From an uncultured Gammaproteobacteria bacterium (lineage in GTDB: Bacteria > Patescibacteriota > Patescibacteriia > UBA1558 > S5-K13), in assembly GCA_964424195.1 (NCBI GenBank), contig CAYRHT010000006.1, positions 1 through 33,408 on the forward strand: DNA of 33,408 nt. The letters run 5' to 3'. Made by a program: the position numbers and the translations under genes. Positions 2,059-33,408 of this stretch are shown here, piece after piece; the stretch's first letter is position 1, and the number at the start of each line of letters is the position of its first letter. The notes beneath the pieces were generated by a model. That model worked only from the letters and a program-made list of their open reading frames with translations. It had not been told where the DNA came from and did no database searches.

Positions 2059-5000
2059 TTATTTTTTATTAGTTTTCTTTTCTACTTTCTTCTCTACTTT
2101 TTTAACAATCTTCTGTTTTCCCGTTTTTGGATCTATTCCAAAACCAGTACCAGCTGGAATTAATCGACCAATAATAACGTTCTCTTTCAGACCTCTTAAG
2201 TGATCAACTTGTCCAGAGATTGAAGCATTAATTAATACTCGAGCTGTTTCTTGGAATGAAGCTGCTGACAAGAAAGAATCAGTAGTTAGAGAAGCTTTGG
2301 TCATTCCTAAGAGCAAGATTGAACCCTTAGCTTCTTTCTTAGATTTCTCTTTCAAAGTAATATTAGCTTTCACAAATTGATTTCTAGTAATTATAGCGCC
2401 AGGGATAAATTCACTATCCCCTGGATCTTCAACATATACTCGAGAGAATAATTGTTTACATACTAATTCAATATGCTTATCATTTAATCTTTGTCCCTGA
2501 CTAGAATAGATATATTGGATTTCTTTAATAATATACTTTTGAACAACATCTTGTCCTTTAAGGGTATAAAGTTTTTTAAGATTAACACTTCCTTCAGTAA
2601 GTTGAGTACCAGCATCAACTAAATCATTATTCTTTACCCATAAATTAATATCATCTGGAACAATATATTCACCAACAATTGGTTTTTGAGCAATAATCTC
2701 AATTTTAGTTTTAGTTAAATGCACCATACCAGCATTAATTGATTTAATTTTTCTTCCATCAAGCTTAAATAATTCTTGTTTTTTCTTAATCTCTTCTTTG
2801 TCTTTAATTGCAATTTCTGCTTTTTCTGGAATATCATATCTTTCTAAAACATTTTCATTAGAGAAAACTTGAATTAGCTTTGATTTCTTTTTACCTTCAT
2901 CTTCTACATCAGAAATTTTAACCTTACCTGATAATTCACTAATCACAGCTTGCATCTTTGGATTTCTAACTTCTAAAATTTCTTCAACTCGAGGAAGACC
3001 TTGAGTAATATCACCACCAGCAATACCACCAGTATGAAAGGTTCTCATAGTTAATTGAGTTCCAGGTTCACCAATACTTTGAGCAGCAATAATACCTACT
3101 GCCGTTCCCATAGTAACTAGCTTATTATGTCCTAAGTCATAACCATAACATTTTTGACAAACACCATTCTTAGCTTTACAAGTTAACAAAGATCTAATAT
3201 GTACTTCTGCTACTTCTAATTCATCGATTAAAGCTGCTGCTTTCTTATCAACTAAAGTATCTTTCTTAACAATTGTTTTACCACTCTTAGGTTCTTTAAC
3301 TTCTTTAATTACAAATCTACCTAAAACTCTAGGTCCTAATTTCTTTCCCATATTTTCTGATTCTTCTTTAGTAATTACTTTACCCTCTTTATCTTTACAA
3401 TCTTCAGAAAGAATTAAAATATCTTGGCAAACATCAATTAGTCTTCTAGTTAGATAACCAGCACTAGCTGTTCTCAAAGCTGTATCAGATAGACCTTTAC
3501 GAGTACCATGAGTAGAGATAAAGTATTCTAGAACATCTAGTCCTTCATTAAAGTTAGCTTTAATAGGCAATTCAATAATTTCACCAGCTGGATTAATCAC
3601 TAATCCCTTCATACCCATAATCTGAGTCATTTGACTCCAAGAACCTCTTGATCCTGAATTAATCATAGAATAAATAGAGTTGTTCTTTGGAAAGACTCCT
3701 TTAGATTTTTCAGTAACTTTATTCTTAACACCTGTCCAAATCTCAACAACTTTTACATATCTTTCTTTGTTAGTTAAGAAACCATCTTCATACAAATCTT
3801 GAATTTTCATTACTTCTTTATTCGCTTTATCAATCAATTCTGGCTTATCTGATAATTCTGGAAGATCTGACATGCTCCATGATAGTCCTGATTTAGTAAT
3901 AAACTTCAAAGATAATTTCTTTAATCTATCTAAAAATTCAATTGTTTTTTCGTCACCATAGATATCTAATACTTTAGCTACGGCATCTTTAATAGATCCA
4001 GAATCCATTTCTTCATTTAAGTATCTTAACTTCTCTGGTAAAATTCTATTAAAAATTGCTCGACCTACAGTAGTAGTAACAATCTTATCCCCTATTTTTA
4101 TTCTAATTAGTTCTTGTAATCCAATACCTTGTAAATCATAGGCTGCTAAAGCTGCTGTTCGATTAGCAAAAAGTCTCATCTTTTTTTCATCAACATCATC
4201 ATCAACAACAGCAGTTAAATAGTTAGCACCCCAGACCATGTCTTGAGTTGGAACAACTATTGGATCACCAGTAGCTGGTTTTAACAAATTTTTAGAAGAT
4301 AGCATAAGTTCTCCTGCTTCTTTTTTAGATGCTTCAGTTAAAGGAACATGAACCGCCATTTGATCTCCATCAAAATCAGCATTAAAAGCAGCACAAACCA
4401 TTGGATGAATTTGAATAGCCTTACCTTCAATTAGTTTTGGTTTAAAAGCTTGAATACCTAATCTATGAAGAGTTGGAGCTCTATTTAATAATACATAAGC
4501 GTCTTTAGTAATTTCTTCTAAAATATCCCAAACATCATCTCCACCTAAATCAATATATCTTTTAGCACTTCGAACATTATGAACAATTTCTCTTTCAATT
4601 AATTTAGAAATTACAAATGGTTTAAACAATTCTAGAGCCATAGTCTTTGGAATACCACATTCATGAAGTTTAAGTTGAGGTCCAACCACAATTACTGAAC
4701 GACCAGAATAGTCTACTCGTTTACCAAGTAAGTTTCTTCTAAATCTTCCTTGTTTTCCTTTTAACATATCAGCTAAACTCTTCAACATTCTCTTTTGTCC
4801 TGTTGAAGCTGTAACTGTTTTACCATGTCGAGCATTATTATCAATTAAAGCATCGACTGCTTCTTGAAGCATTCGTTTTTCATTTCTTAGAATAACTTCT
4901 GGAGCATTAAGGTCTTTTAATCTCTTTAATCTATTATTTCTATTAATAACTCTTCGGTAAAGATCATTTAAATCAGAAGTAGCAAAACGACCACCATCTA

Positions 5001-6018
5001 ATTGCACCATTGGTCTTAGATCTGGAGGAATAACAGGAATAGCTGTTAAAACCATACATTCTGGTCGAATACCATTTTTTATAAAATTCTGAGCTAATCT
5101 AGCTCTTCTAATAATCTTCTTAACTTTAGAGGCTGGAGCTGTTTTCACTTGTTCATTTAATTCTTTAACTAGCTCTTCTAACTTAATCTTCTCTAAAAAT
5201 GTTCTAATTGCTTCTGCTCCGATATCAGCACTAAAGATGTGTCCATACTTCAAAGAGAGTTCTTTGTAATCACTTTCAGAAATAATTTGAAAAGGTTTAA
5301 TTTGTTTTAATTCTTTTTTAGCTTCTTCTGCTACATTAGAAATCTTTTTAACTCTATCTTCTTTAGAATTTACTATTTCATTTTTTTCTAATTCTAATTT
5401 GGCAACTTCTTTAGCATTTTTAGCTTTTCGAGCTTCAGCAATCTTTTCATCTAGTTGACTAGCTTGTTCCTCTATTTTCTTGTCGATTCCTTTTACTTTT
5501 TGCTTTAATTCTTGTTTAATTTGAATTAAAGTTTCTGCTTTCAAATCTTCATTAACATTAGTAATAATAAAATTAGCAAAGTAAACTACTTTTTCTAACT
5601 GTTGAATAGATAAATCTAAGACAATACCAATTTTAGAAGGAACACCTCTTAAGAACCAAATATGAGAAACAGGAGCTGCTAATTCAATGTGTCCAAAACG
5701 TTCTCGTCTAACACTTTTTCTAGTAACTTCGACTCCACACTTATCACAGACAATACCTTTATATCTAATTCTTTTGTATTTACCACAATAACATTCCCAA
5801 TCTTTGGTTGGTCCAAATATTTTCTCACAGAACAAACCATCTCGCTCAGGTTTCTGAGTTCGATAGTTAATTGTTTCTGGCTTTAAGATTTCACCATGTG
5901 ACCATTCATGAATCTTTTCTGGTGAAGCTAAAGTAAGTCTAATACTATCAAAATGTGGTGTCTTATCAGCATCATTATTGAAAGTAAAACTTGTTTTAGT
6001 TGATGAAGGAGTTGGCAT
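2059..6018 (-). CDS. rpoC: RNA polymerase beta' subunit
   Basis: NADFDGD catalytic motif, N-terminal Zn-binding cysteines (CYCGKY...CDKC), trigger-loop motif QLTMRTFH. Confidence 0.99.
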
Positions 6019-9779: not shown

Positions 9780-10118
9780 TTATTCTTTAATTCCTAATTG
9801 TTCTTTAGCAATTCTTAATACACTCCTAAAATTAGCTAAGTAACCATCCATAAGTTCTTTACCAATATTTTCCACCTCTTCAACTTTATTAGGATTTTCT
9901 TCAAGAAATTTAACAATACAAGGCACCATTTGCTCTTCACGAAACTTTTTTATTTCTGCTGCCTTAAGACCTCCACTTTCAAAAATAGCATCATATTGAC
10001 CTACTAAGTTCTGAAAATCAGCACGAAACTGAGTTATAATTTCGTCTTCTACTTTTTGATCTGGCTTTTCGATAATATCCTCACTAGGCTTTTCAAAATT
10101 TTTCATACAATTTTTCAT
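9780..10118 (-). CDS. Hypothetical protein (true start possibly 10106, MKNFEKP)
   Basis: ORF track. A 12-bp tandem duplication ATTTTTCATACA (10098-10121) duplicates the start region. Confidence 0.6.
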   Translation of the reverse strand: MKNCMKNFEKPSEDIIEKPDQKVEDEIITQFRADFQNLVGQYDAIFESGGLKAAEIKKFREEQMVPCIVKFLEENPNKVEEVENIGKELMDGYLANFRSVLRIAKEQLGIKE

Positions 10119-10165
10119 ACATTTTTAATTAATAATTAATTATATAATACTAATATTAATTTATT

Positions 10166-10558
10166 CTACAAATTCTGATCAATAAAGTCTTTTAAAGTGA
10201 CTAAGTCCTTTTTATCCCTATCATAATGATAAGTGTTTATACCTACAGCTTGAGCACTTTTTACTGATTCCTTATCATTTTCAAAATAAAGTACATCTTT
10301 AGCTTCTAACCCAAAATTATTAAGCATTGTTTCATAATACTTAGGATCTATTTTATTAGGATGGTTCTTTAAGGTAAAAACTTCATATGGAGCATTCTTT
10401 AAATTAAGAATATTTGTGTCTTTATAATCAGCGTTAGTAAGAATAATCTTCTTATTAGGATACTTTTCAAGCATTTGATACATTTCCTCAAAAACCTCTC
10501 CTTCAGGAGTAATAAGAGAATATTTTGCGTCTACTAAAATTGTTTTTATATGTTTCAT
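10166..10558 (-). CDS. HAD-like hydrolase, short and degenerate
   Basis: IKTILVDAKYSL (motif I-like), LTNA, NHPNKIDPKYY, VLYFENDKESVKSAQAVGI. Confidence 0.7.
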   Translation of the reverse strand: MKHIKTILVDAKYSLITPEGEVFEEMYQMLEKYPNKKIILTNADYKDTNILNLKNAPYEVFTLKNHPNKIDPKYYETMLNNFGLEAKDVLYFENDKESVKSAQAVGINTYHYDRDKKDLVTLKDFIDQNL

Positions 10559-10559
10559 T

Positions 10560-11129
10560 TTATTTTGAAGAGTTTTTAATAAATTTTTTAAAAGTTTGAT
10601 AATATTTCTCTAATTCTTCTTTACATATATCCAGGGAAAGAACATTATACTTTTCTTCCATCTTTTTTTCTAATTGAACTAAACAATCGTCTATATTGTC
10701 AAATCTTCTACCTAATAGATTTAAATAGGCAAATACTCCCCGAGGATGGATAAAACGATAACAATCAGCATTACAACATATCTCAGCCTCTTTACAAGTA
10801 AAAGGAATTTGAGCATGGTGTGCTCCTACGCAATTTAATATTTTATCTTTTTCTTTATCGCTAATTTCAAATTCACTTAGAAATTCCCTTGTAGCATCTA
10901 CACTCATTTGAATATGTTCAGGAGCTTTACCATTTTTTATTGCTTCACCTAGTTTAACATCCATTAAATAAACACCTACTTTTACAATATTAGTATCTAC
11001 ATCAAATTTTTCAGCTAATTCTAAGGCTTTCTTTTCAGAAAGTTCAAAATGATCCATTATTGGAGTTCCAAATTTTTCTGTTTCAGAGATAGCAAATTCC
11101 CGTGCTTTTTGAACAATATTTTGATCCAT
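10560..11129 (-). CDS. HD-domain-like protein (LMD in place of LHD); likely start 11129
   Basis: DHFELS...VGVYLMDVK...VGAHH...NADCYRF follows the HD helical pattern. The ORF-track start at 11162 overlaps the upstream gene. Confidence 0.6.
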   Translation of the reverse strand: MDQNIVQKAREFAISETEKFGTPIMDHFELSEKKALELAEKFDVDTNIVKVGVYLMDVKLGEAIKNGKAPEHIQMSVDATREFLSEFEISDKEKDKILNCVGAHHAQIPFTCKEAEICCNADCYRFIHPRGVFAYLNLLGRRFDNIDDCLVQLEKKMEEKYNVLSLDICKEELEKYYQTFKKFIKNSSK

Positions 11130-11133
11130 ATAT

Positions 11134-11742
11134 TTATTTTTCAATTTTAAACATTTTTCCATGTCCAGGTACTACCCAATCAGCTATTTCTAAAATTTTA
11201 TCTCTGCTAATATCAAATTTATCTACATCATAAAAAAGATCTGGATTTCCTTTTTTACTTAAATCAAGCCAATCTTCACTATTTATAGCATCTCCAGCTA
11301 TTACAACTTTTCCAATATCAGAGTCTACAACAATACTAATACTATCATTAGTGTGTCCAGGAGTCTCAATAATTTTTACATCTTTAACGATTTGTTCATT
11401 TAAAATATCAAATCTCTCTAAAACACCCTCGTTTATTTTTTGAAACATTCCCACATATTTAGTTTCACCTCTAAATCTTAAAAATATTTTAGCCTCCTTA
11501 AATAAAGATATATTTGTAGTATGGTCTACATGTGAATGAGTTAAAATAACATTTTGAATGTCTTCTAGTTTTAAATTTTCATCTTCTAATGCCTTTAATA
11601 ATTTTTCTTGGCTAACGAAAGATCCAGGATCAACTATAATATTCTCCTCGCCTTTTATAAGAGTAGTTGTGCAATGAATTTGTAATTTACTAGGATTTAA
11701 AAATTTATGAACCCCTTCTACTAAAACTTTTACTTCTGCCAT
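11134..11742 (-). CDS. Metallo-beta-lactamase-fold hydrolase
   Basis: THSHVDH, TPGHT, AGDA and PGHG motifs. Confidence 0.9.
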   Translation of the reverse strand: MAEVKVLVEGVHKFLNPSKLQIHCTTTLIKGEENIIVDPGSFVSQEKLLKALEDENLKLEDIQNVILTHSHVDHTTNISLFKEAKIFLRFRGETKYVGMFQKINEGVLERFDILNEQIVKDVKIIETPGHTNDSISIVVDSDIGKVVIAGDAINSEDWLDLSKKGNPDLFYDVDKFDISRDKILEIADWVVPGHGKMFKIEK

Positions 11743-11759
11743 ATAATTAAATTTTAAAA

Positions 11760-12131
11760 TTAAATAAAAAAGTCAGTATCTTTATTTCTATCTATTAATT
11801 TATGAGCTACTTTCATTTCTTCTGGAGAATAGATATAGGTTATTTTAAATTTCCCAGATGTAATTTGTTTAATATTATCATGAGTAATCTCAATAACATG
11901 AACGAGTCCCCAATACAACCATTTACCATCAATATTTTGTACTAAAAAATTACGAACTGGCGGTGCTTGATAAATTCTAAGACCATCTTTATCTTTAAAT
12001 TCAAAAATTCTATCTTTAAAATCTTCAACAGTAAAAGGATTTATTTTATGTTTTTCATAATCTAATTCCATTGGAAAACCCTGTTCAGTGGATATTTGTA
12101 AAGTATCATTTGTTGTAATATTACTACCCAT
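11760..12131 (-). CDS. Hypothetical protein
   Basis: 123-aa ORF in an operon-like run. No motif recognised. Confidence 0.65.
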   Translation of the reverse strand: MGSNITTNDTLQISTEQGFPMELDYEKHKINPFTVEDFKDRIFEFKDKDGLRIYQAPPVRNFLVQNIDGKWLYWGLVHVIEITHDNIKQITSGKFKITYIYSPEEMKVAHKLIDRNKDTDFFI

Positions 12132-12142
12132 ATATTTATTGT

Positions 12143-12757
12143 TTAATTTATTTTTATTTGAAGATTAATTAACTCTTCTTTTACCTGTTGAGGGGTTTTA
12201 AATAATATTCCCTATATTCCTGCTTGTATTGCGCCCTCAATATTTTCTATATAATCATCAATAAAAACAACTTCTTCTGGTTTATCTTTTAGCTTATCTA
12301 AAATAATATTATATATTTTACTATCAGGCTTAACTATTTTCTCAGCACAAGAAAAGACAATTGCATCAAAATATTTATCATACTTGTTTTCATAAAAATA
12401 TTCCATCGTTGGAATTTCTGTATTCGATAAAAAACCAATTTTATAACCATTTTTCCTTAAATCTCTTAGAAGCTGATACATATCTTTCTTATCTAGAAAA
12501 ACATTATTTACTGCCTCTTTCCATAAAGAATCTGATTTTGGCTCATTAATATTTAATTTATCACAAATTTCTTTCCATAAAGTATTCTCTAAAATAGTTC
12601 CCTTTTGAAACTCTATAAATATATCAGTTTCTTCAGAAAAGATAGTTTTTAATAATTTTAACTCAACTCCTAAAACTTTAGCACAGTATTTTATTACCTC
12701 TTCCAGAGGTTGATCAATAAGAACACCTCCCCAATCAAATATTATCGTTTTAATCAT
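12143..12757 (-). pseudogene. HAD-IA phosphatase interrupted by an in-frame TAG (12212-12214)
   Basis: FDWGGVL, LSNT, KPD and FIDD motifs. After ...AIQAGI-TAG the same frame continues GILFKTPQQVKEELINLQIKIN-TAA, a typical HAD C-terminus, ending 11 bp before the next start codon. Confidence 0.75.
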
Positions 12758-25361: not shown

Positions 25362-25413
25362 ATTTTTTATTTTTATTAGTTATTTAATTTTAACACATAA
25401 ATTAAAATACCTT

Positions 25414-25443
25414 AAAACCGCTTAGCAATAACTAAGCGGTTTC
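25414..25443. terminator. Intrinsic terminator
   Basis: AAAACCGCTTAG-CAATAA-CTAAGCGGTTTT, a perfect 12-bp stem. Confidence 0.85.
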
Positions 25444-25462
25444 TTAAGATAATGTATTTAGT

Positions 25463-25846
25463 TTACAACACAAAGAAACTAACATAAGAGACAATAGCTC
25501 CAAAGATAGTCACAAATAATCCAATAAATACTATAGTTTCTTTTTTCTTAGTAAAGATTTTACTGAAATTCTTTAATGCTTTGGGAGCTAAGAAATAAAG
25601 AGCTCCTTTCACAATTCCAGCCCAACCAAAGATAGGGAGAATTATAAACCAACCTTCTGTATTACCGGTAAAAGTAATTAAAAGATAGCCAGCAATTAAT
25701 CCTAGGAAACCATAAAGGTAATTGTTTGATTCATTGTCTATTAAATCTCTAAAGGCCTTTAAGTGGTATTTAGGATTAAAAAGCATCCCAATTCCTAAGA
25801 GTAAATAAACAATACCAATGAGTTGCAGGATTTGAATATTAGTCAT
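25463..25846 (-). CDS. Small multi-pass membrane protein (DUF2065-like)
   Basis: About four hydrophobic helices; GWAGIVKGALYFLAP. Confidence 0.65.
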   Translation of the reverse strand: MTNIQILQLIGIVYLLLGIGMLFNPKYHLKAFRDLIDNESNNYLYGFLGLIAGYLLITFTGNTEGWFIILPIFGWAGIVKGALYFLAPKALKNFSKIFTKKKETIVFIGLFVTIFGAIVSYVSFFVL

Positions 25847-30988: not shown

Positions 30989-31681
30989 TTATTGCTGACA
31001 ACCACAAGAAGACTGATATGTTCCTTTATTACCACTGAGACAATCTTTAACATTATCTAAATTTTCATTATTAACCTGAATTGGATAAAATTTAAATAAT
31101 CCAATTGTTAAGAATATGAATAAGATGAGAATTATAATTTGAATTTTAGATACTTTTTGAATTTCTTTCTTCTCAAATACTTCACAGGTCCCTCCAGGAC
31201 ATAATTGAGCCTTTTCTTTATGAAATAGATTGTAAATCTGACAACCTAAACAAATTCCAAAAGAAGATTCAAAAAACAAGAATATTAGACAGATTAAACA
31301 AATAGCGAAGTTTAAGGGTCCTTTAATATTCTGGACTATCATTAAGAAGAACATAATTAGTGATAATACTAATCCCATTCTCCAAGCAAACTTTTTTTGA
31401 GGAGCACCAGTATATTCTACTTTTTGTTTAGAGACAATCAAGCGACCAATGATCATGGTTGGAGCAAACTTAGGATTAACAAAAAGACGAATAAGGAAGT
31501 CAATTAAAAAGACGATAATAAATATTTTTATTAATTGAAAGTCCCAAACTAACCAAATGTGCATAAAAGATATTAGAGCAAAGACGAATAAGATACCAGC
31601 AGCAGCTCTTACTTCTCTTTCATTTAAAACTCGAACATCATATTCTTTTACTTTTTCACCAAAGTGAAATATATTTTTCAT
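30989..31681 (-). CDS. DUF4395-family membrane protein
   Basis: NEREVRAAAG, GAPQKKFAW, FESSFGICLGC, LCPGGTC. Confidence 0.8.
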   Translation of the reverse strand: MKNIFHFGEKVKEYDVRVLNEREVRAAAGILFVFALISFMHIWLVWDFQLIKIFIIVFLIDFLIRLFVNPKFAPTMIIGRLIVSKQKVEYTGAPQKKFAWRMGLVLSLIMFFLMIVQNIKGPLNFAICLICLIFLFFESSFGICLGCQIYNLFHKEKAQLCPGGTCEVFEKKEIQKVSKIQIIILILFIFLTIGLFKFYPIQVNNENLDNVKDCLSGNKGTYQSSCGCQQ

Positions 31682-31750: not shown

Positions 31751-31777
31751 AAAAACAGACCTTTATGGTCTATTTTT
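31751..31777 (-). terminator. Terminator at the distal end of the cassette array
   Basis: AAAAACAGACC-TTTAT-GGTCTATTTTT, fully paired with a G-U on the minus strand. Confidence 0.7.
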
Positions 31778-31810
31778 TGTTTATCTGTCTTTTGGATTTT
31801 CACTATTTCA

Positions 31811-31884
31811 CCTCAACGTGTTCCAGATGATCCGAAGTCCTGCAAGTGAAACGAAGGAGGATTTTGGATATCTAGCGTTGTATG
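31811..31884. mobile_element. attC-like site A (array end)
   Basis: CCTCAAC...CCAGATGATCC GAAGT...GGATATCTAG C GTTGTAT, an imperfect hairpin with a bulged base. Confidence 0.55.
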
Positions 31885-31891
31885 ATGTTGA

Positions 31892-32449
31892 TTAAAAAAA
31901 TTTCTTATTTATTTTTGATAAATAATCTTCATAAAATTCGGAACCTAATTCTGCTAATAAAATTGGATTATTTGGTTCATTTACTTGCTTACCCAAATGT
32001 GTACATGGAGGATAGAAAAGTTTGCCTGAATTAGTAAAGGAGGTAGCTACTATTTTCTCTGGGTAAAATTGAACTCCAGAGGTGACTTCGTAAGTCACCT
32101 TACTATCATGAACAATAAAGCTTTTTTCCTTTGGTAGAGACGTTATTAATATGTGTTGTGGACTTTTTTCTATAAACTCTTCTATTGTGTGTTCGTCTGC
32201 GTCTCTAGCGTTTTTTAAATATTGTAAAAGAGGGTCTTCTTTTCTTTCATTTTTAAAGTTACTTTGCCATGGTTCAAATTTATTACGAAACGATTGACAT
32301 TCTCTTTCGGCTTTTTTCCAAACCTTTTCGAGGTAATTAAGAAAATTTTTCCAATTTTTTTCAAAATCTTTAATATTTTCAGCTTTTTTCATAGATTCTA
32401 AGGAATCTTTTGCTAATTTAAGTTCTTTTTTTGAATGTTTAAGAGACAT
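31892..32449 (-). CDS. Cassette-borne hypothetical protein, HEPN-like
   Basis: Helical N-terminal half with LKNARDADEH (Rx4H, R82/H87). Bounded by attC-like sites. Confidence 0.6.
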   Translation of the reverse strand: MSLKHSKKELKLAKDSLESMKKAENIKDFEKNWKNFLNYLEKVWKKAERECQSFRNKFEPWQSNFKNERKEDPLLQYLKNARDADEHTIEEFIEKSPQHILITSLPKEKSFIVHDSKVTYEVTSGVQFYPEKIVATSFTNSGKLFYPPCTHLGKQVNEPNNPILLAELGSEFYEDYLSKINKKFF

Positions 32450-32467
32450 ATTTTTTTAATTAATTTC

Positions 32468-32568
32468 ATATAACGTTTACCGATATCCGAAGTTTTCTTG
32501 AGCAGAGCGAAAGAAAACTTGGGTGGAGGTTCTCGGAAGAGCCGTAACCGGATATCGCGTTGTTAGCT
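32468..32568. mobile_element. attC-like site B
   Basis: ATATAAC...CGATATCCG / CGGATATCG...GTTAGCT, with an internal 10-bp hairpin AAGTTTTCTT/AAGAAAACTT. A GC-rich island in AT-rich DNA. Confidence 0.7.
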
Positions 32569-32634
32569 GATGTGTATGTTTTTCTTTGACCCGCCCAGAG
32601 CGGGTCACTCTTAAAAAGAATTAAGTTTTATTTT

Positions 32635-33153
32635 TTACGTTTCCTGTTGCTTTTTTAATTTGTTGCTTAATTCTCTAAGGTTTTTTAACAAATCATAGAC
32701 TTTAAATTTTTTTTGTTTTTCAAATTGATCTATTAAGTCTCTGTACGATAAATAGTTTTCCCAAACATCAATTTCATTATCACTGGGAAAATCAACTTCA
32801 GCCGTAAGTTTCATTTGATTTCTTTGTTTAAATTTACTACTTTGCTTAAAATCACTAGCACACTTAGTCAAATCAGCTCGAAGAGCCATTAATTGACCAA
32901 TTTCAACCATTGATGTATTTTCTCCACGCTTTAGATGTGCTCCATATTGCTCCATTAAATATTTCTCATTAGGCAATACATCTAATATTTCTTCCATTTT
33001 TAAAATTATTTCTTCTGGATTTACTTCTTTTTCATTTTCAGGTGTCTCTGTTTTTGTTATTTCCGGATCAGTCCCAGGTTTTAAAGTTTCATTTTGATTT
33101 TTTGTATTTGCCATCTCTTCTGGAGTTGGCATTTTTGGTTCTTCAATACCCAT
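32635..33153 (-). CDS. Cassette-borne hypothetical protein
   Basis: 172 aa, with an acidic Pro/Thr-rich N-terminus then a helical domain. Lies between attC-like sites B and C. Confidence 0.7.
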   Translation of the reverse strand: MGIEEPKMPTPEEMANTKNQNETLKPGTDPEITKTETPENEKEVNPEEIILKMEEILDVLPNEKYLMEQYGAHLKRGENTSMVEIGQLMALRADLTKCASDFKQSSKFKQRNQMKLTAEVDFPSDNEIDVWENYLSYRDLIDQFEKQKKFKVYDLLKNLRELSNKLKKQQET

Positions 33154-33253
33154 ATTTTTTTGTTATTTATTAAAATAATAATTATTAATAGTAAAAATAA
33201 AATTTAATTCTTTTTAAAAGTAGGCGTTAGCCGTAAAGTAAAACATATATTTC

Positions 33254-33352
33254 AGCTAACATCGCGATTAAGCGAAGTAAAATTTCTAGGCAACCCAAGA
33301 AATTTTATTTGGACGGAGCCTGCAAGGCGGAGTCTCTTAATCGCTGTTATAC
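33254..33352. mobile_element. attC-like site C
   Basis: AGCTAAC...GCGATTAAG / CTTAATCGC T GTTATAC, with internal hairpin AAGTAAAATTTCT/AGAAATTTTATTT. TCAGCTAAC (33252-33260) is the exact reverse complement of GTTAGCTGA (32562-32570). Confidence 0.7.
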
Positions 33353-33408
33353 GTTTTTTCTGCAAGAAAAAAAGCCGAAGGCTCAGTTCAAAAAATATTT
33401 TTCGTTCT

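Follow-up and report, generated by a model that had tools for sequence, protein, structure and literature searches.

A probable integron-like gene-capture platform in a Patescibacteria genome, headed by an IntI-like recombinase without the IntI-specific domain

Introduction

Integron integrases (IntI) are tyrosine recombinases that move circular gene cassettes by crossover between an attC site and either attI or another attC site. In canonical attC sites, the arm facing the AAC of the bottom strand, which is the strand recombined, bears the extrahelical bases (PMC5027507), and these bases are read by the I2 domain of the integrase (PMC5027507, PMC4792948). A passage of PMC7790495 ascribes the transition of IntI from double- to single-strand recombination to the gain of the I2 alpha-helix, and a passage of PMC9668308, citing Messier & Roy 2001, treats this IntI-specific domain as defining and necessary; the archaeal integrons (Ghaly et al. 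2022, PMC9668308) keep it. The IntegronFinder 2.0 survey lists no integrons from the Candidate Phyla Radiation (CPR), and in our own literature search, whose coverage was incomplete, neither integrons nor integron-like arrays turned up for CPR/Patescibacteria, so that a prior description is possible. Here we analyze the stretch formed by positions 1 to 33,408 of contig CAYRHT010000006.1 (33,408 nucleotides (nt); "the window" hereafter means this whole stretch), which belongs to a 952 kb metagenomic contig. An initial annotation, made from the letters alone, had described its right end as an array of single open reading frames (ORFs) separated by attC-like hairpins, and had suggested an integron, or a cluster of attC sites lacking an integron integrase (CALIN), with a divergent attC class.

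A second group of tyrosine recombinase systems is relevant to the comparison. The dif sites on which Xer recombinases act are short duplexes of about 28-30 bp, and in some single-recombinase Xer systems (XerS/difSL) the site lies within ~100 nt of the recombinase gene. In the case of CTX-phi, a folded single strand can serve as Xer substrate (PMC4792948), and an excerpt of PMC7399989 describes pdif modules as bounded by inverted boxes.

Results

The window holds the distal end of a cassette array

With a probability that we put at roughly 80%, a complete integron-like gene-capture platform is present in the chromosome of a Patescibacteria bacterium, and the right end of the window comprises its two distal cassettes and its three last recombination sites. 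To judge from its RNA polymerase, the host belongs to the Patescibacteria (CPR), as the initial annotation had thought probable: the best named relatives of the window's RpoB are "Patescibacteria group bacterium" (81%) and Komeilibacteria/Parcubacteria (71-72%), and there are relatives with an RpoB 81-94% identical to it. G+C content in the window is 25-35%, and its ORFs read through under genetic code 11. The array is oriented along the minus strand of the window; the features of the region are as follows.

31810-31888, minus: site 1, short variant (79 nt) and last of the attC-like sites (sequence, fold, box table)
31817-32473, minus: cassette 9, 657 nt, from the TT of the site 2 GTT box to the G of the site 1 GTT box (ORF list)
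31892-32449, minus: ORF185 in cassette 9, an orphan protein of 185 amino acids (aa) (ORF list)
32463-32573, minus: site 2, a typical attC-like site with a three-way junction, 125 bits to covariance model R1 (sequence, fold, covariance model)
32474-33259, minus: cassette 8, 786 nt (ORF list, inverted repeats)
32635-33153, minus: ORF172 in cassette 8, an orphan protein of 172 aa, helical by prediction (ORF list; low-confidence single-sequence structure model)
33249-33356, minus: site 3, attC-like, 43.7 bits to R1 (sequence, fold, box table)
33357-33408, minus: 3' end of cassette 7, whose GmrSD-type nuclease gene lies outside the window (sequence)
33372-33384: terminator-like hairpin in the end of cassette 7 (terminator scan)
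31751-31777, bidirectional: terminator-like hairpin between the last array site and the DUF4395 gene, the distal end of the element (terminator scan of both strands)
30989-31681, minus: DUF4395 gene flanking the array (Pfam match)

Everything that the initial annotation had observed within these coordinates was borne out. Three GC-rich hairpins bounded by AAC...GTT (G+C 0.39-0.48 against a background of ~0.28) separate single ORFs on the same strand, and CGAAGT stands at the equivalent place in each of them (31833, 32488 and 33273); the motif occurs 13 times in the window against 5.0 expected, a number reached in 0/100 shuffles. Folded as single-stranded DNA and compared with shuffles, the sites gave z-scores of -2.35 (site 1, plus strand), -3.7/-3.8 (site 2) and -4.7/-4.0 (site 3). 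Leftward the array ends at the bidirectional terminator-like hairpin beyond its last site, and past the right edge it continues, as had been expected, to a total of nine sites and 14.4 kb.

In array orientation, site 1 reads ACATCATACAAC - L stem - ...ACTTCG - L' stem - AACAC - GTTGAGGT. The boxes of site 2 are ACATCAGCTAAC ... GTTATATGAAAT, with the inner motifs GGTTACGG and CCTCCACCCAA, and those of site 3 are AACGTATAAC ... GTTAGCTGAAAT. Site 1 is missed by model R1 and is therefore a divergent member of the site family. The core boxes match across the ORFs: the outer box of site 1 agrees with the start of cassette 9 at 8/9 positions, the GTT box of site 3 with the outer box of site 2 at 9/9, and the AAC box of site 3 with the GTT box of site 4, outside the window, at 8/9. 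This agreement is in fact longer than the 8-9 nt first claimed, with inverted repeats around the ORFs (I1-I3) of 34 nt (85% complementary), 29 nt (93%) and 26 nt (85%). Cassette 8 is moreover flanked by imperfect terminal inverted repeats of ~75 nt (32554-32635 versus 33193-33268), each interrupted by a small hairpin (e.g., 32588-32606).

Neither cassette protein could be assigned to a family: ORF185 and ORF172 have no Pfam or PADLOC match, and their structure models are of low confidence, with a predicted local distance difference test (pLDDT) score of 50.3 or 64.5 for the two (ORF185 ~50). Residues ~80-86 of ORF185 read NARDADEH, an R-x4-H pattern that recalls the HEPN nuclease motif; we did not retain ORF185 as HEPN-like, given a lack of Pfam or profile support and the poor structure model.

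Housekeeping genes, among them rpoB/C, nusA, a pilT-like gene and tRNAs, make up the other 31 kb of the window. Rfam, searched at the gathering threshold over the whole window and at a permissive E-value over the array region, returned only two tRNAs and noise. The hairpins are clustered and not scattered through the window: R1 has no match above 25 bits in those 31 kb. A weak match of 23 bits (25398-25466) was discarded as a recombination site, being a plain stem-loop terminator (aaaccgcttag...ctaagcggtttt).

The complete element spans ~14.4 kb

The three sites of the window are the last of nine attC-like sites in an element of ~14.4 kb, which we treat as locus L249 (L249 coordinate = 46477 - window coordinate). 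In array orientation, its order is rplS, recombinase gene (on the opposite strand), attI-like junction, nine cassettes, terminator and DUF4395 gene. Its parts ahead of the window's sites are as follows.

L249 270-1106, divergent from the array: tyrosine recombinase of 278 aa, adjoining rplS, on the same contig as the window and three cassettes upstream of the radical SAM gene
L249 1185 (position of the box): attI-like junction ...AACTTCGTATATAAGGA|GTTAGGCGAAAT, 79 nt from the recombinase start codon
L249 1875-1980: site a1
L249 ~2760-2960: site a2, long variant
L249 4445-4555: site s7
L249 5942-6050: site s6
L249 10105-10230: site s5
L249 10531-10740: site s4, long variant
Sites s3, s2 and s1, which close the array: window sites 3, 2 and 1

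Each of the nine cassettes is closed by a structured attC-like site of 80-220 nt, and in all nine the box after the preceding site complements the box before the cassette's own site, with matches, for cassettes 1 to 9, of 9/9, 7/9, 9/9, 8/9, 9/9, 8/9, 8/9, 9/9 and 8/9. As is typical of integrons, the cargo combines orphan ORFs with a defence gene, a GmrSD-type nuclease. Cassettes 1-4 carry ORF164, ORF210, ORF92 together with a radical SAM/SPASM protein, and ORF427; cassettes 5-9 carry a five-gene transporter operon, a Cys-rich 91-aa ORF, the 680-aa GmrSD-type nuclease, ORF172 and ORF185. Several cassettes have a terminator-like hairpin of their own upstream of the site.

The transporter operon (L249 6301-9992, equal to L001 2978-6669) encodes a CsoR-like repressor, an ABC ATPase, a 147-aa protein, and MacB-type and FtsX-type permeases. 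Since it is flanked by two sites whose boxes match at 9/9 positions, we consider it a 4 kb multi-gene cassette, unusually large by the standards of integron cassettes. A 31-nt stretch is identical at its two ends, and its leader and trailer (L001 2727-2860 and 6654-6790) form imperfect inverted repeats of ~75 nt, each with its own mini-hairpin. Such leader/trailer families recur in dozens of metagenome loci at 75-94% identity. An 80-aa gene called in one assembly within and just after long site 4 (L001 7322-7564) is probably not a real gene; it is uncalled in the ENA copy of the contig.

Complementarity spans cassettes, not single sites

If the sites delimit excisable units, neighbouring sites should be linked across the cassette that they enclose. 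We compared 27 flank positions per site, and found that the right flank of a site agrees with the left flank of the next at a median of 18/27 positions (45 non-redundant pairs). The median is 10/27 both when the two flanks of one and the same site are compared and when pairs are drawn at random (Mann-Whitney p ~1e-6). The arrays are also strictly polarized: all sites lie on one strand in 31/31 multi-site loci, and the dominant inter-site ORFs are co-directional with the array in 48/48 cases. Complementarity runs 25-75 nt outward from the boxes and is interrupted, nine bases outside the box, by a conserved mismatch of 2 nt in which GAAAT stands against GATGT. When cassette 8 is reconstituted as a circle, it gains ~75 nt of extra complementarity and folds with -58.5/-61.1 kcal/mol, against -36.0 with the flanks that it has in the array.

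These data also bear on the idea that the hairpins are palindromic miniature repeats (similar to miniature inverted-repeat transposable elements, repetitive extragenic palindromic sequences or Correia elements) that accumulated between the genes of an accessory island. Such elements are repeated, structured and intergenic and have inverted-repeat ends, much like the sites described here, and short-read assemblies break at the sites and show excess depth there. In particular, assembler depth in three marine metagenome runs rises from ~6x to 40-245x over window positions 33336-33408, and the site boundaries are where contigs break, so this cassette-end and site sequence is common to many other loci or organisms in those samples. 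Conservation that reaches ~130 nt around some sites pointed in the same direction. However, a mobile palindrome should carry its complementarity within each copy, whereas the two flanks of single sites match no better than random pairs and the linkage runs across cassettes; because of this flank test, we rejected the repeat reading. The absence of copies from the 31 kb of adjoining housekeeping DNA, the single orientation of sites within each locus and the fact that arrays start at a recombinase speak against it as well, and we regard it as barely credible.

The position of the crossover can be read from a cassette leader common to three loci, which starts exactly at GTTGTACGAAAT. In L249 an attC arm stands before it; in L189 and L251 attI-type sequence does. 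A shared leader with a homology break at GTT is the pattern expected if crossover takes place at the GTT box. An exchange at the AAC box, for which the flank test gives the same linkage, is less likely, since one and the same leader follows an attI or an attC core with the break at GTT. A local BLASTP comparison of cassette genes between loci found one clear shared case, a homologue of ORF427 (64%) in the array of L177.

The sites form a family with a conserved three-way junction

We built a covariance model (R1) from 6 typical sites of 4 genomes; its consensus is a three-way junction in which 8/24 pairs show compensatory change. A specific motif scan of JGI metagenomes yielded at least 118 loci, and R1 identified 188 sites in the first 100 of these motif-selected loci together with two loci on viral contigs, the only 2 motif matches found there. 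An earlier pattern (GGTTACG-N10-40-TCCRCCCAA), applied to a genome collection, was too loose: most of its 120 matches were chance hits in unrelated phyla, and the true relatives among them were L019 (Falkowbacteria), L036 (Saccharibacteria) and L120. For 145 distinct sites, the fraction of cells that pair is 95.3%; it falls to 74% in shuffles and to 37-50% with slid partners. Compensatory change is seen at 21/24 pairs. The 150-site alignment had been fitted to R1, and these pairing counts are therefore somewhat inflated.

On the strand sense to the ORFs, the first half of the family consensus reads TACATC-NNN-T-AAC, 1 nt, L'' stem, the hairpin GGTTAC-GGCTTTT...AAAAGCC and the linker TCCACCCAAA; in the second half follow a variable second hairpin, ACTTCR, the L' stem, 3-4 nt and GTT-A-NNN-GAAAT. 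The inner motifs GGTTACGG, CCACCCAAA and ACTTCG are conserved and common to distant CPR lineages. There are short (site 1, 79 nt) and long (site 4 and a2, ~200 nt) variants, some of which R1 misses. AAC and GTT stand at the aligned positions in 126/150 sites. The surrounding cores, GTT-A-NNN-GAAAT and TACATC-NNN-T-AAC, depart from the integron consensus: GTTRRRY (R') fits 30/120 sites (25%) and RYYYAAC (R'') 11/120 (9%). In all 122 of 122 sites, the extra unpaired bases (3-4 nt versus 1 nt) lie beside the sense-strand GTT, i.e., on the AAC arm of the bottom strand, which is the arm other than in canonical attC (PMC5027507). The suggestion of a divergent attC class thus held up in core consensus, arm asymmetry and inner architecture. 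As for the strand involved, folding energies slightly favour the bottom strand, and a conserved G-T pair favours the top strand.

This last feature could also fit elements that work at the level of RNA, such as stabilizers in the 3' untranslated region, processing sites or terminators that follow accessory genes, with a recombinase nearby by coincidence. Every site lies downstream of, and sense to, an ORF, the sense-strand G-U pair is kept in 143/145 sites, and R1 scores the sense strand far above the antisense strand. An RNA function, however, leaves unexplained why boxes match across ORFs and not within sites, why the homology of different loci ends precisely at GTT, why the unstructured junction next to the recombinase shares its box with the first unit, and why the same order of recombinase, junction and array recurs in 11 independent loci (see below). 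Moreover, several cassettes already possess a terminator-like hairpin upstream of the site, and no Rfam family matches the sites. We therefore consider an RNA-level role very improbable.

Some relatives of the site family occur in other settings. L120 contains a solitary site (4584-4708, minus) with a type I restriction-modification HsdS gene on one side and a 115-aa ORF on the other. The site seems to be a hybrid of two types, one resembled by its L'' arm and the other by its L' arm, and its main stem consequently lacks complementarity. On the Saccharibacteria contig L036 (1-5807), family sites stand beside a HEPN RiboL-PSP protein, a ParB/DUF262-like protein and a restriction-modification pair, and a HicA-family toxin pair is found at the far end of another array (L245 5411-5846).

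An IntI-like recombinase without the I2 region heads the arrays

The recombinase gene and the attI-like junction lie ~12 kb past the right edge of the window, at the head of the same array, and for this reason the element is not a CALIN. The initial annotation had proposed to look to the right for a tyrosine recombinase with the IntI-specific insertion; the recombinase is there, and the insertion is absent from it. With IntI1 and XerD sequences used purely as seeds, a screen of all loci detected nine tyrosine recombinases, each of them much closer to IntI1 than to XerD. Seven of the nine lie directly upstream of an array and point away from it. As an unbiased control we picked homologues by protein similarity alone, and in 3/3 informative loci co-oriented sites were found on the divergent side. 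Together with the window's own element, the layout of recombinase, junction and array is thus present in 11 independent loci (7 motif-selected, 3 similarity-selected and the window's own).

The junction itself recurs as well. A GTTNNNNGAAAT box, preceded by unstructured AT-rich sequence, stands 70-115 nt upstream of the recombinase in 6/7 motif-selected divergent loci and in the window's element, and it matches the outer box of the first attC wherever this was identified (L147, L153, L189 and L249). We read it as a putative attI-type site beside the recombinase gene, whose crossover GTT would be shared with the cassettes.

The recombinase family is Patescibacteria-wide and mostly 278-282 aa long (260-302 aa for all of the 120 closest homologues listed), and carries the NCBI name "site-specific tyrosine recombinase/integron integrase". 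The recombinase of the window's element passes NF040815 (XerA / integron integrase) over its full length, with 240.6 against a cut-off of 220, and remains below the cut-off of the TIGR02249 integron-integrase model, with 208.3 against 265 in two stretches; eight relatives score 201-234 bits with the latter. Its best solved relative is the Vibrio cholerae IntI (VchIntIA, 2a3v; 155.8 bits), with XerA at 141 and 137 and XerD at 95. The match to IntI is split (query 7-183 to IntI 2-181, query 204-276 to IntI 245-317): where VchIntIA has 63 residues (182-244, skipped), the query has 20, and the I2 region of ~43 residues is absent. The same gap was found in 7/7 CPR proteins aligned to IntI1. Catalytic residues are all present, and the tail is an IntI-like SPLD. 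Judged by these alignments, the recombinase is IntI-like and lacks the I2 region.

Two observations concern the neighbourhood of other recombinase homologues. L191 1-3349 equals L154 minus 4.4 kb, with an N-terminal dnaE fragment joined in frame to the recombinase, and is either an assembly chimera or a real rearrangement of L154. The CPR contig L248 carries, at a distance of 9 kb from a recombinase homologue, what looks like a diversity-generating retroelement (10083-11059): a reverse transcriptase gene (RVT_1) preceded by a bAvd-like gene.

Weighing an integron-type platform against a Xer-type system

Several results count against an integron-like platform. The recombinase passes a model named after XerA and misses the one for integron integrases, and because of this it could also, or mainly, be the cell's chromosome-dimer resolvase. 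In L154, the recombinase (11279-12424) is co-directional with its site (4958-5066), 6 kb away. Close homologues of the radical SAM protein occur outside detectable arrays (L251 and L252, without R1 matches); L251 nevertheless keeps the cassette leader joined to attI-type sequence. We further looked for order variation and circular cassettes, both named as checks by the initial annotation, and saw neither. No joints across the window's cassettes were present in the contigs of four public DNA runs, and cassette order was identical in all 23 contigs read that have the flanking DUF4395 protein (exact look-ups of ORF172, ORF185 and the DUF4395 protein); both searches used assembled contigs, which drop rare variants. 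The window's sequence was not found in the RNA runs. Evidence for reshuffling from comparison between genomes is indirect, consisting of the ORF427 homologue in L177 and the leader common to three loci. We infer from sequence that the element is active in recombination.

The first of these points is the core of a Xer/dif-type explanation, in which a XerA-like dimer resolvase acts on a gene-side junction that is its dif, and the cassettes are modules exploiting Xer, like integrative mobile elements exploiting Xer (IMEX) or Acinetobacter pdif modules, that recombine as double-stranded DNA. Several features are shared with such systems: like archaeal XerA, the recombinase is small and free of an I2-like insertion, its target lies beside its gene (within ~100 nt, as in XerS/difSL), the gene stands among housekeeping genes (rplS), and the units are bounded by inverted boxes. 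That last trait is also described for pdif in the excerpt of PMC7399989. In contrast to short duplex dif sites read arm by arm, however, the sites here are three-way junctions of 80-220 nt whose stems covary as their sequences change, which would be unexpected for a 28-30 bp duplex. Also unlike Xer modules, the units of an array have one ORF each and without exception run in a single direction, away from the recombinase, and the protein scores closer to IntI than to XerA, XerD, XerH or any Xer structure, despite the missing domain. We therefore judge a purely Xer-type system unlikely, while a Xer role and an integron-type role are not mutually exclusive.

Comparison with integrons

Like integrons, the element has a unidirectional array and, transcribed in the opposite direction from it, a tyrosine recombinase with an attI-type junction beside its gene, as well as cassettes that mostly hold a single orphan ORF and end in an imperfect palindrome bounded by AAC...GTT; the box after each site complements the box before the next, crossover is placed at GTT, a defence gene is among the cargo, and VchIntIA is the nearest solved relative of the recombinase. 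The archaeal integrons (PMC9668308) are similar in that they were found by genome-resolved metagenomics outside the classical host range, with attI beside the recombinase gene and many orphan cassettes. Unlike these and the bacterial integrons, the CPR element has a 278-aa recombinase that lacks the IntI-specific additional domain (the I2 helix) and scores below the TIGR02249 cut-off. Its sites are three-way junctions with the conserved inner motifs GGTTACGG, CCACCCAAA and ACTTCG and low agreement with GTTRRRY (25%) and RYYYAAC (9%), their extra unpaired bases are on the arm beside GTT, and beyond the boxes they remain complementary for another 25-75 nt, apart from the fixed mismatch of 2 nt.

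We set the element against the integron definitions of Messier & Roy 2001, IntegronFinder and Ghaly 2022. An adjacent recombinase, an attI-like site (on sequence evidence), AAC...GTT palindromes with paired boxes and the cassette box signature are present. The I2 domain is missing, the curated IntI score is too low, and both the GTTRRRY/RYYYAAC consensus and the extrahelical-base geometry differ; because of these four departures, it is not a textbook integron. That the element works like an integron is well supported, and the term "integron" from the initial annotation stands as far as the layout and the excisable type of the cassettes are concerned. As the integron family is currently defined, the element falls outside it on a defining feature, the I2 domain.

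Discussion

We propose that the recombinase would, in the manner of integron integrases, insert and excise cassettes in circular form, with the crossover at the GTT box or just 5' of it and with an attC-like site recombining with either attI or another attC-like site. The attC-like site would act as a folded single strand, because its stems covary and because the outer complementarity of 25-75 nt meets only in the excised circle. For the cassette of ORF172, the predicted junction of such a circle is ...GGATATCGGTAAACG|TTAGCTGAAATATATG.... Since the I2 helix, which reads the extrahelical bases in IntI, is absent, recognition would probably rely on the three-way junction (the GGTTACGG hairpin, the CCACCCAAA linker and ACTTCG) and on two fixed asymmetries, namely the internal loop of 3-4 nt versus 1 nt beside the boxes and the GAAAT/GATGT mismatch nine bases outside the crossover. 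With the extra bases on the other arm in every site and no I2 domain, strand choice would have to be encoded differently than in integrons.

CPR bacteria, with genomes of ~1 Mb, account for a large share of the microbial diversity in groundwater and in the sea. In organisms thought to be poor in mobile-element mechanisms, the element would be a gene-capture platform whose cargo includes defence genes and the 4 kb operon for a transporter. Software that depends on the IntI-specific profile will not recognize complete integrons here, so a possibly large reservoir of CPR cassettes is being missed. A structure-specific site with strongly conserved inner motifs, together with a small recombinase, could also serve as a compact recombination tool.

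Tentatively, and with less confidence than an even chance would warrant, we suggest that CPR carry a distinct and widespread integron lineage, whose recombinase never had the I2 domain or dispenses with it and recognizes a folded three-way-junction site instead of extrahelical bases. This enzyme might in addition serve as the sole Xer recombinase of the cell, and attI might then also act as dif. A recombinase family that is nearest to IntI, lacks I2 and heads arrays of folded sites would constitute either a natural experiment on the origin of integrons or a second structural solution to the same task. With cloned CPR components, the "chicken-egg" question of PMC4792948 becomes testable. If the clade branches below canonical IntI, it would be a living "proto-integron", showing that cassette arrays with folded sites were possible before the I2 domain existed, and, if true, this would answer the chicken-and-egg paradox of Escudero et al. 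2016.

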